From Escherichia coli (lineage in GTDB: Bacteria; Pseudomonadota; Gammaproteobacteria; Enterobacterales; Enterobacteriaceae), in the NCBI RefSeq assembly GCF_024502345.1, contig NZ_JALDNN010000001.1: a DNA stretch of 64,000 nt; one strand, 5' to 3'. Of this stretch, positions 26,159 to 51,121 are shown piece by piece. Both the position numbers and the translations under genes were made by a program. The notes under the pieces were generated by a model. It ran no database searches and was not told the DNA's origin. It worked only from the letters and a program-made list of their open reading frames with translations. Each line of letters starts with the position of its first letter. Positions within the stretch are counted from its first letter, which is position 1.

Positions 26159-27697
26159 ATGGCTTTTGCCTCATTAATTGAACGCCAGCGCATTCGCCTG
26201 CTGCTGGCGTTATTATTCGGTGCCTGCGGAACGCTGGCCTTCTCTCCTTACGACGTCTGGCCTGCGGCGATTATTTCGCTGATGGGGCTTCAGGCGTTGA
26301 CCTTTAACCGTCGCCCACTCCAGTCTGCCGCTATTGGCTTTTGCTGGGGATTTGGCCTCTTTGGCAGCGGTATTAACTGGGTCTATGTCAGCATCGCGAC
26401 CTTTGGCGGGATGCCTGGCCCGGTTAACATCTTCCTGGTGGTGCTGCTGGCGGCGTATTTGTCGCTGTATACCGGACTGTTTGCTGGCGTGCTGTCGCGT
26501 CTGTGGCCGAAAACCACCTGGCTGCGCGTGGCGATTGCCGCCCCTTCTCTCTGGCAAGTGACCGAGTTTCTGCGCGGTTGGGTACTGACAGGCTTCCCGT
26601 GGTTACAGTTCGGCTATAGCCAGATTGATGGCCCGTTAAAAGGGCTGGCACCGATAATGGGCGTGGAAGCCATTAACTTCCTGCTGATGATGGTTAGTGG
26701 CCTGCTGGCACTGGCGTTGGTTAAACGCAACTGGCGTCCGCTGGTGGTGGCCGTCGTGCTGTTTGCCCTACCCTTCCCGCTGCGTTACATCCAATGGTTT
26801 ACCCCGCAACCGGAGAAAACCATTCAGGTTTCGATGGTTCAGGGCGATATTCCGCAATCACTGAAATGGGATGGAGATCAGCTTCTTAATACGCTGAAGA
26901 TTTACTACAACGCAACGGCTCCGCTGATGGGCAAATCATCGTTGATTATCTGGCCGGAGTCGGCGATAACCGATCTGGAAATTAATCAGCAACCGTTCCT
27001 CAAAGCACTGGACGGTGAGTTGCGCGATAAAGGTAGCTCGCTGGTAACCGGGATTGTCGACGCGCGTCTCAATAAGCAGAACCGCTACGATACCTACAAC
27101 ACCATCATCACACTGGGTAAAGGTGCACCGTACAGCTACGAATCAGCCGATCGCTATAACAAAAACCATCTGGTGCCGTTTGGCGAGTTTGTCCCGCTGG
27201 AGTCGATTCTGCGTCCGTTAGCACCGTTCTTTGATCTGCCGATGTCGTCGTTCAGCCGTGGGCCATATATCCAGCCGCCGCTGTCAGTAAATGGTATTGA
27301 GCTTACTGCGGCTATTTGCTACGAGATCATTCTCGGCGAGCAAGTGCGCGATAACTTCCGCCCGGATACCGACTATCTGCTGACTATCTCCAACGATGCG
27401 TGGTTTGGTAAATCTATTGGTCCATGGCAACACTTCCAGATGGCGCGAATGCGTGCGCTGGAGCTGGCGCGCCCACTGTTGCGCAGCACCAACAACGGCA
27501 TTACGGCGGTGATTGGCCCGCAGGGTGAGATTCAGGCGATGATCCCGCAGTTCACCCGCGAGGTGTTAACCACTAATGTGACACCGACCACCGGACTCAC
27601 ACCGTATGCACGTACCGGCAACTGGCCACTGTGGGTGCTGACGGCACTGTTTGGTTTTGCCGCTGTGTTGATGAGTCTGCGTCAGCGACGTAAATAA
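26159..27697 (+). CDS. lnt: Apolipoprotein N-acyltransferase
   Basis: 512 aa; N-terminal transmembrane segments followed by a CN-hydrolase domain. Confidence 0.95.
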
Positions 27698-27796
27698 TCC
27701 CTTCTTAGCGTGCCGGAATACATCCCATATTTCGGCACGCTCACCGGATGCGGCATCAGTGCGTTATCCGGATAACAATATTCTCCTATCCAACTT

Positions 27797-27812
27797 TGGC
27801 ACATCTATTGCT
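27797..27812 (+). promoter_or_regulatory. Candidate sigma-54 (-24/-12) promoter upstream of gltI
   Basis: TGGCACatctaTTGCT, with GG and GC separated by 10 nt; from memory gltIJKL is nitrogen (NtrC) regulated. Confidence 0.45.
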
Positions 27813-28093
27813 TTGTTATACAAGGCAAAGCTTGAACCAGCATCAGTACAACCCGGTTGCACCACAGCAATCCACCGGTAGCACCAAAAGAGTGCATTTT
27901 AAGAATTTTGCTTCGGAATGGTGCGGCGCACCTCCCAAATATAAACAATAAAACAGCAATATCTTTACATTTAGCCAAACTAAATGTTACCTAACAGGTA
28001 CAACACTGCACAATAAAGTTGCAGATGATAACAACACAAACACTCACAACGGGTATCCATGCGTTCTTAACGCAGAAGATAAAGGAGTTGGAT

Positions 28094-29002
28094 ATGCAAT
28101 TACGTAAACCTGCCACAGCAATCCTGGCCCTGGCGCTTTCCGCAGGACTGGCACAGGCAGATGACGCAGCCCCGGCAGCGGGCAGTACGCTGGACAAAAT
28201 CGCCAAAAACGGTGTGATTGTCGTCGGTCACCGTGAATCTTCAGTACCTTTCTCTTATTACGACAATCAGCAAAAAGTGGTGGGTTACTCGCAGGATTAC
28301 TCCAACGCCATTGTTAAAGCAGTGAAAAAGAAACTCAACAAACCGGATTTGCAGGTAAAACTGATTCCGATTACCTCACAAAACCGTATTCCGCTGCTGC
28401 AAAACGGCACTTTTGATTTTGAATGTGGTTCTACCACCAACAACGTCGAACGCCAAAAACAGGCGGCTTTCTCTGACACTATTTTCGTGGTCGGTACGCG
28501 CCTGTTGACCAAAAAGGGTGGCGATATCAAAGACTTCGCCGATCTGAAAGGCAAAGCCGTAGTCGTCACTTCCGGCACTACCTCTGAAGTTTTGCTCAAC
28601 AAACTGAATGAAGAGCAAAAAATGAATATGCGAATTATCAGCGCCAAAGATCACGGTGACTCTTTCCGTACCCTGGAAAGCGGTCGTGCCGTTGCCTTTA
28701 TGATGGATGATGCTCTGCTGGCCGGTGAACGTGCGAAAGCGAAGAAACCAGACAACTGGGATATCGTCGGCAAGCCGCAGTCTCAGGAAGCCTATGGTTG
28801 CATGTTGCGTAAAGACGATCCGCAGTTCAAAAAGCTGATGGATGACACTATCGCTCAGGTGCAGACCTCCGGTGAAGCGGAAAAATGGTTTGATAAATGG
28901 TTCAAAAATCCCATTCCGCCGAAAAACCTGAACATGAATTTCGAACTGTCAGACGAAATGAAAGCACTGTTCAAAGAACCGAATGACAAAGCACTGAACT
29001 AA
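28094..29002 (+). CDS. gltI: Glutamate/aspartate ABC transporter periplasmic binding protein
   Basis: 302 aa from internal Met with aaggag RBS; signal peptide ...AGLAQA. Confidence 0.93.
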   Translation: MQLRKPATAILALALSAGLAQADDAAPAAGSTLDKIAKNGVIVVGHRESSVPFSYYDNQQKVVGYSQDYSNAIVKAVKKKLNKPDLQVKLIPITSQNRIPLLQNGTFDFECGSTTNNVERQKQAAFSDTIFVVGTRLLTKKGGDIKDFADLKGKAVVVTSGTTSEVLLNKLNEEQKMNMRIISAKDHGDSFRTLESGRAVAFMMDDALLAGERAKAKKPDNWDIVGKPQSQEAYGCMLRKDDPQFKKLMDDTIAQVQTSGEAEKWFDKWFKNPIPPKNLNMNFELSDEMKALFKEPNDKALN

Positions 29003-29004
29003 TT

Positions 29005-29152
29005 ACAAGAACCAGGGGCGGAAATTCTAGCCCTCTCGATTGTTACGTAGCACGGACAGACTATACGCCTGATGGTCGTTCCCCATCGGGCCTGAAAACC
29101 GCAATACGCTGGGTAACAATCTTCGAGGGTAGCAGTTAACGCTGCTACCCTC
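29005..29152 (+). ncRNA. sroC: SroC sRNA (gltI-gltJ intergenic, processed from the gltIJKL transcript; GcvB sponge)
   Basis: Position matches the known sroC locus; ends in hairpin ggtagcagc-gttaacgctgctaccc plus T-run (29117-29152); boundaries approximate. Confidence 0.6.
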
Positions 29153-29171
29153 TTTTTTCTGGAGTAGATTT

Positions 29172-29912
29172 ATGTCTATAGACTGGAACTGGGGTATTTT
29201 TTTACAACAAGCCCCGTTCGGCAACACCACCTATCTTGGTTGGATCTGGAGTGGTTTTCAGGTGACGATCGCTTTGTCGATCTGCGCCTGGATTATCGCT
29301 TTCCTCGTCGGTTCATTTTTCGGCATTTTACGTACCGTTCCAAACCGTTTTCTCTCCGGTCTGGGTACGTTGTATGTCGAACTGTTCCGCAACGTGCCGT
29401 TGATTGTGCAATTCTTTACCTGGTATCTGGTGATCCCGGAGCTGTTGCCGGAGAAAATCGGCATGTGGTTTAAGGCCGAGCTGGATCCCAATATTCAGTT
29501 TTTCCTTTCATCCATGCTCTGCCTTGGGCTGTTTACCGCCGCCCGTGTTTGCGAACAGGTACGCGCCGCTATTCAGTCGCTGCCGCGTGGGCAGAAGAAT
29601 GCCGCGCTGGCGATGGGTCTGACGCTACCGCAGGCTTACCGCTACGTACTGCTGCCTAATGCTTATCGCGTTATCGTCCCGCCGATGACCTCAGAGATGA
29701 TGAACCTGGTGAAAAACTCCGCCATCGCCTCGACCATCGGTCTGGTAGATATGGCAGCGCAGGCGGGTAAATTGCTCGACTACTCGGCTCACGCCTGGGA
29801 GTCGTTTACCGCCATTACGCTGGCGTATGTATTGATTAACGCTTTTATCATGCTGGTGATGACGCTGGTTGAACGTAAAGTTCGCCTGCCCGGCAACATG
29901 GGGGGCAAATAA
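29172..29912 (+). CDS. gltJ: Glutamate/aspartate ABC transporter permease
   Basis: 246 aa; polytopic membrane protein. Confidence 0.93.
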
Positions 29913-30586
29913 TGTACGAGTTTGACTGGAGTTCCATTGTTCCTTCCCTGCCATATCTGCTCGACGGGCTGGTGATCACCCTGAAAATCACCGTCACGGC
30001 AGTCGTGATTGGTATTTTGTGGGGCACCATGCTGGCGGTGATGCGCTTGTCCAGCTTTGCGCCCGTAGCGTGGTTTGCCAAAGCCTACGTTAACGTATTC
30101 CGCTCGATTCCTTTAGTTATGGTTTTGCTGTGGTTTTACCTGATCGTGCCGGGTTTTCTGCAAAACGTGCTGGGATTATCGCCAAAAAATGATATCCGTT
30201 TAATTTCGGCGATGGTGGCGTTTTCGATGTTTGAAGCGGCCTACTATTCAGAGATTATCCGTGCCGGTATTCAAAGTATTTCTCGTGGTCAGTCGAGCGC
30301 CGCTCTGGCGTTGGGAATGACTCACTGGCAGTCGATGAAACTGATTATTCTGCCGCAGGCGTTCCGCGCGATGGTGCCGCTGCTGCTCACTCAGGGCATC
30401 GTACTGTTCCAGGATACCTCACTGGTGTATGTGTTATCTCTGGCCGATTTCTTCCGTACCGCCTCAACTATTGGTGAGCGTGATGGTACGCAGGTTGAGA
30501 TGATCCTGTTTGCCGGATTTGTTTATTTCGTTATTAGCCTTAGCGCGTCGTTGTTGGTCAGCTACTTGAAAAGAAGGACAGCATAA
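29912..30586 (+). CDS. gltK: Glutamate/aspartate ABC transporter permease
   Basis: 224 aa; start overlaps gltJ stop by 1 nt. Confidence 0.93.
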
Positions 30587-31311
30587 TGATTACCCTGAAA
30601 AATGTTTCAAAATGGTATGGTCACTTTCAGGTGCTGACCGACTGCTCAACCGAAGTGAAAAAAGGCGAAGTGGTGGTGGTTTGCGGCCCGTCTGGTTCCG
30701 GCAAATCAACGCTGATTAAAACCGTCAACGGCCTCGAACCAGTGCAGCAAGGTGAAATCACCGTCGATGGTATCGTGGTTAACGACAAGAAAACCGATCT
30801 GGCAAAGCTGCGTTCCCGCGTCGGGATGGTATTCCAGCATTTTGAGCTGTTCCCTCATCTGTCGATTATCGAAAACCTGACCCTGGCGCAGGTGAAAGTG
30901 CTTAAACGCGATAAAGCGCCGGCTCGTGAAAAAGCATTGAAATTGCTGGAGCGCGTGGGACTTTCCGCACATGCCAATAAATTTCCGGCGCAGCTTTCCG
31001 GCGGTCAGCAGCAGCGTGTGGCGATCGCTCGCGCATTGTGTATGGATCCTATTGCCATGCTGTTTGACGAACCGACATCGGCGCTGGATCCGGAGATGAT
31101 CAACGAAGTGCTGGACGTAATGGTCGAACTGGCGAACGAAGGAATGACCATGATGGTGGTGACCCACGAAATGGGCTTTGCCCGCAAAGTGGCGAATCGG
31201 GTGATCTTTATGGATGAGGGTAAAATTGTTGAAGACTCGCCGAAAGATGCGTTCTTCGATGATCCGAAATCGGACCGCGCAAAAGACTTCCTCGCGAAAA
31301 TCCTGCATTAA
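30586..31311 (+). CDS. gltL: Glutamate/aspartate ABC transporter ATP-binding protein
   Basis: 241 aa; Walker [13 protein letters not shown] signature LSGGQQQR, Walker [11 protein letters not shown]. Confidence 0.95.
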
Positions 31312-50326: not shown

Positions 50327-51121
50327 TCATAATAATTGCGGCGACGCAAAGCGACGGTTGTTTAAGACGGGCAGTTGCGCGCGCACCTGACGCACACGTT
50401 CGGGCGTCACTTCCGCCATAATGAGTGCAGGCATTTCTGACGCTGCCGCAATGGTGACGCCAAAGGGATCTATAATCCGGCTTTGCCCGATATTTTTGTT
50501 CCCGCACTCCCCCGCCGCCACCATATAACAGGTGGTATCCAGCGCACGAGCGGCAAGCAACGTTGACCAGTGATGCTCTTTGAGCGGCCCGCGAACCCAG
50601 GCGGCAGGAAGCACCAGGATTTCAGCTCCCTGTAATGCCTGTGCCAGCGCCAGCTCTGGAAAGCGTAAGTCATAACAGGTCATCAGACCGACCTTCATCC
50701 CTTCCACCTCCAGTAACGGAGCTATTTCATTACCAGCATCAACATGGCGTGATTCCTGAATGGCAAATGCATCATAGAGATGCAGTTTGGCATAACGGGC
50801 GACAATGTTTCCTGCCTGTAGCGCCACCAGCATATTCCATGCGCGCCCCGGCGTTGAAGGAACATGAATCGTCAGAATTGTCGTCATCATGTTACGTTTA
50901 CTTTCTCGCCGTAAACGTCCGAGGAATTCGCCTTCCAGCAGCTGTGCTGATTTAACCGATAGATCTGCATCATGATCATCGCGTGCCAGCAATGCTTCCG
51001 GCAGGACAAACAGCGATACGTCGTTTTCCGCCGCCTGCGCCATCAACGAGGCACAAATCTCAGCGTTCTTTTCCCACACAGATGTAACAGCAAACTGTCC
51101 TGCAGCAACCAGCATTGCCAC
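50327..51121 (-). CDS. ybeM: Carbon-nitrogen hydrolase (nitrilase superfamily) YbeM, apparently intact
   Basis: 264-aa uninterrupted ORF (start may be 2 codons downstream); GECGNKNIG around the expected catalytic Cys. Confidence 0.8.

Follow-up and report, generated by a model that had tools for sequence, protein, structure and literature searches.

Gene order and leader of the gltI operon

The window analysed here, a stretch of 64,000 nucleotides of Escherichia coli DNA, carries the genes ybeZ, ybeY, corC and lnt, which are followed by gltI, sroC, gltJKL and rihA, and all of them are located on the plus strand. The coding region of gltI (28094–29002, plus strand) encodes the periplasmic glutamate/aspartate binding protein and was assigned from its open reading frame and from the RefSeq annotation of near-identical strains. 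Its start at 28094 agrees with the RefSeq annotation in a strain of 99.6% identity. The small RNA SroC, which derives from the 3' end/UTR of gltI, was recovered at 28998–29160 (plus strand) with the Rfam model RF00369 (170.8 bits), and in the literature this co-transcribed product serves as read-out of the σ54 promoter of gltI. The remaining operon genes gltJ, gltK and gltL occupy positions 29172–31311 of the plus strand, as judged from their open reading frames and the MG1655 annotation.

Upstream of the gltI start we found a C/A-rich leader element (28028–28050, plus strand), which can be seen in the sequence and is conserved in our alignment of 24 genera. This element is the target of GcvB and a translation enhancer of the gltI mRNA (Miyakoshi 2015, citing Sharma 2007). 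Directly 5' of it, positions 28006–28024 form a conserved inverted repeat CTGCAcaataaagtTGCAG, which reads TGCAC-N7-GCA in many genera and could form a small RNA hairpin or constitute a protein site; the same region gave a spurious 'NtrC-like' match. Folding of the 274-nt leader RNA that would start at the σ54 promoter yielded a z-value of −2.2, which is too weak for interpretation.

Further upstream, the alignment shows invariant columns that outline a putative proximal σ70-type promoter region (27934–27994, plus strand). It involves an A/T-rich stretch (27934–27963), an invariant TTTACA (27964–27969), a TG dinucleotide (27985–27986) and a weak −10-like TACCTA (27988–27993). A σ70 consensus scan of positions 27500–28300 gave neither a σ70 match nor a strong promoter, so the proximal promoter was assigned only from conservation and from the literature, according to which gltIJKL has both a σ70 and a σ54 promoter (Miyakoshi et al. 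2022). A terminator scan of the same interval returned one weak terminator-like site, and this site is located inside lnt. Between the lnt stop and the σ54 element (27708–27771), we observed a hairpin-forming inverted repeat GCGTGCCGGAATA...TATTTCGGCACGC, which lacks a T-run and is followed by a degenerate REP-like sequence CCGGATGCGGCATCAGTGCGTTATCCGG. Other genera lack this segment or carry a different one, and there a canonical lnt terminator directly adjoins the −24 element.

The σ54 promoter element upstream of gltI

The σ54 −24/−12 promoter element TGGCACatctaTTGCT is located at positions 27797–27812 of the plus strand, and TGGCACATCTATTGCT was read at exactly this place. Its GG (27798–27799) and GC (27810–27811) are 10 nt apart, which is an exact GG-N10-GC arrangement, and all 16 specified positions of the consensus TGGCAC-N5-TTGCW are matched. 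The element is intergenic and co-oriented with gltI; it begins 100 nt after the lnt stop (27695–27697), and the gltI ATG follows 282 nt past its end. An earlier note on this DNA had claimed both the canonical spacing and a distance of about 280 bp to the gltI start, and these claims agree with the sequence and with the annotated ATG. From σ54 geometry, transcription is predicted to start at 27823 (±2 nt, plus strand), roughly 12 nt beyond the −12 GC. For this prediction, we used the same convention as Bonocora 2015, in which the start follows the motif centre at a distance of 19 bp. Neither base-resolution mapping of the transcription start nor promoter-mutant data for this promoter were found in the accessible literature.

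When we quantified matches to TGGCAC-N5-TTGCW in the 64-kb window, we observed one exact match versus 0.11 expected, and 9 of 100 shuffled sequences contained at least one. With one mismatch allowed, the window contained three matches at an expectation of 3.16. These counts indicate that the motif by itself is weakly above chance, and its significance derives from the intergenic co-oriented position, from its invariance across species and from published occupancy data. Two σ54-like sequences with one mismatch were detected elsewhere, TGGCACTGGCGTTGGT inside lnt (26706–26721, plus strand) and TGGCACAGGCATTACA (50631–50646, minus strand). Both of them lack the −12 GC and, since the number of such matches is what chance predicts, they are probably meaningless.

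To describe the conservation of the element, we scanned the gltI loci of 80 species-representative Enterobacteriaceae without forced alignment. Here, we found YTGGCAY-N5-TTGCW 288–366 nt upstream of gltI in all 80 loci, and no variation occurred in the TGGCA and TTGC columns of the 24-genus alignment. The DNA directly upstream of the motif could not be aligned between genera; it is made up of inserts of various kinds, among them lnt terminators and REP-like elements. Downstream of the motif, the order of elements is a variable spacer, an NtrC-like block, the A/T-rich stretch, TTTACA and the C/A-rich GcvB target. The weak window statistics would be compatible with a chance match that has no function. 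However, this reading is effectively refuted by a core that is invariant in 80 of 80 species amid unalignable DNA and by σ54 occupancy in vivo in two species, and we consider its probability negligible.

The occupancy data come from several published studies. In MG1655, TTGGCACATCTATTGCT is the intergenic σ54 ChIP-seq site OS04, which ranks among the stronger peaks (FAT 21), is marked as an EcoCyc-predicted promoter and was assigned to insH3 (Bonocora et al. 2015). The 17-mer of OS04 is identical in our window, and its MG1655 copy is located at NC_000913.3 689228–689243. For Salmonella, a σ54 ChIP-chip site TGGCACGTCTATTGCTTT was reported at gltI (STM0665 site), and gltIJKL was upregulated 1.8-fold in the presence of a promiscuous activator (Samuels et al. 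2013). The gltIp/ybeJ σ54 promoter of E. coli and Salmonella thus corresponds to the window element in locus, strand and sequence, and the Salmonella 17-mer differs in one base. For NtrC under nitrogen starvation, a 55-fold ChIP-seq peak was assigned to gltIJKL (Brown et al. 2014), and according to our own coordinate conversion this peak corresponds to about positions 27802–27882 of the window. Finally, gSELEX peaks of both RpoN and NtrC were located in the insH–lnt spacer (Shimada et al. 2021).

On the level of expression, RNA-seq showed ybeJ (which is gltI) at least twofold downregulated in ΔrpoN mutants of CFT073 and EDL933, and the authors call the ybeJ promoter a known σ54-dependent one (Switzer et al. 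2022). EDL933 carries the window-type spacer. In Salmonella, O157 and O111, SroC levels rose upon nitrogen limitation, but in K-12 the induction was only marginal (Miyakoshi et al. 2022). The earlier note had considered it plausible that the element is the known nitrogen-regulated σ54 promoter of gltI and had named rpoN-independent transcription as the observation that would speak against it. The former view is backed by published σ54 and NtrC occupancy, rpoN dependence and nitrogen induction of SroC, and the latter possibility is contradicted by the fall of ybeJ in the two ΔrpoN strains. The nitrogen induction reportedly depends on glnG. The σ54 promoter of gltI is already known from database prediction, σ54 and NtrC occupancy and rpoN dependence.

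The lnt–gltI spacer of E. coli occurs in two haplotypes. Of 5426 complete genomes, about 2185 have the window type, and the remaining ones (about 60%) carry between lnt and gltI a 1878-nt gene on the opposite strand, which is annotated as rhomboid-family intramembrane serine protease. In the rhomboid haplotype the sequence around the motif is strongly diverged, but the core is kept as TGGCATgtaagTTGCT, and the distance between this core and the TGCACC element is 46 nt as in the window. The boundary between the two haplotypes (about 27790–27850) falls right around the σ54 element.

K-12 differs from the window in another respect. In MG1655 the insertion element IS5D (687851–689045) is inserted at CTAA, which corresponds to window positions 27991–27994 and lies inside the likely proximal −10 region, and it separates the σ54 promoter and the NtrC-like block from gltI. 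The marginal induction of SroC in K-12 has been attributed to this IS5 upstream of gltI (Miyakoshi et al. 2022). This peculiarity of K-12 does not figure in the earlier note. The window is free of IS5 and thus presents the ancestral, functional arrangement. When we inspected complete E. coli genomes, the stretch from the promoter to gltI was contiguous in 5069 of 5423 (about 93%) and broken in about 354. These data indicate that the window shows the common, intact state and that K-12 is atypical for nitrogen regulation of gltI and SroC.

It might be argued that the σ54 holoenzyme binds the element but contributes little to gltI expression. The element would then be a poised or 'repressive' site, and nitrogen control would operate mainly via the proximal σ70 promoter (for instance through Nac) or post-transcriptionally via GcvB and SroC. 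This scenario could draw on the modest 1.8-fold response to a promiscuous constitutive activator in Salmonella, on the fact that many σ54 sites are transcriptionally silent, on the discussion of repressive RpoN sites by Shimada 2021 and on the σ70 promoter described in the literature. However, in two E. coli pathotypes without the IS5 very few genes are downregulated in ΔrpoN mutants, and ybeJ/gltI is one of them. Moreover, the strain in which SroC loses its nitrogen induction is precisely the one in which IS5 splits the promoter from gltI. In addition, the motif is co-oriented with gltI, invariant in 80 species and adjoined by an NtrC-type block. We therefore regard a minor contribution of σ54 as very improbable and conclude that, with high probability, the element at 27797–27812 is the distal promoter of gltI-sroC-gltJKL, which depends on σ54 and is activated by NtrC.

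NtrC-type sites downstream of the promoter

Three sites resembling the NtrC consensus TGCACC-N5-GGTGCA are located within looping distance of the promoter (27858–27925), and all of them are on its downstream side. Their centres are given here relative to the predicted σ54 start at about 27823. Site 1 TGCACCACAGCAATCCA (27858–27874; centre about +43) matches 9 of 12 consensus positions, and the 24-genus alignment shows little or no variation in its left half GCACCA. Site 2 AGCACCAAAAGAGTGCA (27880–27896; centre about +65) matches 10 of 12 positions, reads AGCACC-N5-GAGTGCA in the window and is the strongest and best conserved of the three. Its palindrome (A/G)GCACC-N5-GGTGCA scores 10–11 of 12 in nearly all species (11 of 12 in many) and was found on the downstream side only. 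Site 3 TGCTTCGGAATGGTGCG (27909–27925, within the interval 27909–27931; 9 of 12; centre about +94) overlaps a palindrome GTGCGGCGCAC (27921–27931), which is invariant.

The number of single NtrC-like matches at the same stringency in the window (34 versus 33) corresponded to chance frequency, so the argument for NtrC rests on the clustering of the sites and on their conservation among orthologous loci. A canonical glnAp2-type enhancer, which would be located about 80–150 bp upstream of the promoter, is not present at gltI, and in the 260 bp that precede the σ54 promoter our consensus scan detected no NtrC-like site. The same crude scan recovered the control sites of glnAp2 (−140/−108), glnHp2 (−134/−121/−108) and glnK (−87), all of them upstream as in the textbook. 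The earlier note had pointed to a TGCACC...GGTAGCACC stretch downstream of the motif as reminiscent of NtrC half-sites. This stretch is present at 27858–27885, and three conserved NtrC-type sites do occur there, but their arrangement is the opposite of the canonical layout, a point that the note had left unsaid. Among the accessible literature we found no paper remarking on this geometry at gltI.

Published binding data were considered as a means of settling on which side of the promoter NtrC binds, but the resolution of ChIP and gSELEX is too coarse for this purpose. The 80-bp bins of the Brown data coincide with the σ54 promoter also at glnK, glnH and rutA, and the gSELEX probes are coarse. 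Inspection by eye of the interval between the promoter and the NtrC-type block revealed nothing convincing as an IHF site.

The position of the block relative to its two neighbouring promoters follows different rules. The block is found 43 bp from TTTACA in all but one of 81 sequences. The distance to the −12/σ54 element, by contrast, varies and falls into classes of about 110, 122, 133, 142 and 145 bp. Given this difference, the block could be constrained for the proximal promoter as well or instead. The inserts between promoter and block (+12, +22.5 and +31.5) are near whole helical turns. Although such helical phasing of promoter–enhancer spacing is suggestive, there are only four or five independent indel events and one of them is off-phase. 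Because of the low number of independent events, phasing was set aside as evidence.

A side observation concerns the interval 27921–27969, in which GTGCGGCGCAC and the A/T-rich stretch stand at an invariant 43-bp distance to TTTACA, free of indels, in 80 of the 81 Enterobacteriaceae sequences. Such rigidity exceeds what NtrC sites would be expected to impose by themselves and may indicate the site of another factor or an UP-element/promoter unit.

These distances bear on the question whether the block is the enhancer of the distal promoter at all. The promoter might be genuine, but the downstream TGCACC/GCACC-N5-GGTGCA block might serve the proximal promoter, with NtrC or another factor acting as modulator or roadblock. 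Activation might then come from NtrC sites elsewhere, for instance in the 3' end of lnt. The fixed 43 bp to TTTACA at variable σ54 distance would fit this scenario, and counted from a putative proximal start near 28000, the three sites would be centred at about −134, −112 and −83. In addition, there is a weak NtrC-like match TTCACCCGCGAGGTGTT inside lnt (27551–27567). To our knowledge, however, NtrC activates σ54 promoters only, and there is no correctly spaced GG-N10-GC downstream of the block that it could serve.

The sole candidate for such a second σ54 promoter, AGGCACaacacTGCA of other E. coli strains, was rejected. It is a GG-N9-GC sequence with 9-nt spacing and is not conserved; the window reads GGTAC instead, and the candidate is absent in other genera. 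The match inside lnt was likewise dismissed as an upstream site: it is weak, the key G is missing from its GCAC, its distance varies, and its conservation is due to coding constraint. Further points against activating sites elsewhere are the lack of NtrC-like sites within 260 bp upstream and the lnt terminator, which abuts the −24 element in several genera. The near-integral helical spacing of the inserts points in the same direction, but it is suggestive and derives from few events. Weighing these data, we consider it rather unlikely, although worth keeping in mind, that the block is not the enhancer of the σ54 promoter. The enhancer of the distal promoter appears to be the downstream block with its sites at +43, +65 and +94, which would be a mirror image of the usual upstream layout.

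Proposed mode of activation and comparison with related promoters

When the downstream block is taken as enhancer, the following sequence of events can be proposed. Eσ54 would sit on the −24/−12 element (27797–27812) as closed complex. Under nitrogen limitation, phosphorylated NtrC would assemble on the three-site cluster and would loop to the polymerase. Open-complex formation would then be driven by NtrC at the expense of ATP, and the transcript would start near the predicted position 27823. On its way into gltI, the leader of about 270 nt would first cross the NtrC sites, then the proximal promoter of σ70 type and finally the C/A-rich element targeted by GcvB. Since the enhancer would be located on the transcribed side, the polymerase would have to transcribe through the sites of its own activator.

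A more far-reaching version of this scenario can be put forward only tentatively. The array at about +35 to +105 of the leader might be a natural NtrC enhancer, which is conserved family-wide and keeps a fixed distance of 43 bp to the proximal σ70 promoter. A single array might then have two tasks, namely activation of the distal σ54 promoter from the 'wrong' side and gating or obstruction of proximal transcription. We consider this version possible but doubtful.

Comparison with well-characterized nitrogen-regulated promoters revealed both common and distinct features. The promoters glnAp2, glnHp2 and glnK share with the gltI promoter the −24/−12 consensus and membership in the nitrogen-scavenging regulon, as well as several NtrC-type 17-bp palindromes 60–120 bp from the promoter centre. 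In glnA, glnH and glnK these palindromes are located upstream, whereas in gltI they are found at +43, +65 and +94 inside the transcribed leader. The order of the tandem promoters is also reversed when compared with glnA, since in gltI the σ54 promoter is distal and the σ70 promoter is proximal. Among the testable features that define a σ54/NtrC promoter, the canonical enhancer position upstream is the one that the gltI promoter does not show.

The predicted sites of gltI would not be the only activator sites located downstream of a σ54 promoter. The rocG gene of B. subtilis is said to involve a downstream RocR element, and relocation of the NtrC sites of glnA has reportedly produced such an arrangement as well. 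However, the rocG element is located about 1.5 kb away, beyond the gene, whereas the predicted gltI sites are less than 100 bp from the start and lie in the path of the polymerase.

Taken together, these data confirm the existing annotation of gltIJKL and sroC as members of the NtrC/σ54 nitrogen-scavenging regulon. They also indicate that K-12 is a poor model for the σ54 promoter of gltI, given the IS5 that separates promoter and gene in this strain. If the downstream enhancer is confirmed, the gltI leader would provide a native system for a σ54 activator that acts from the transcribed side, with the polymerase passing its own activator.
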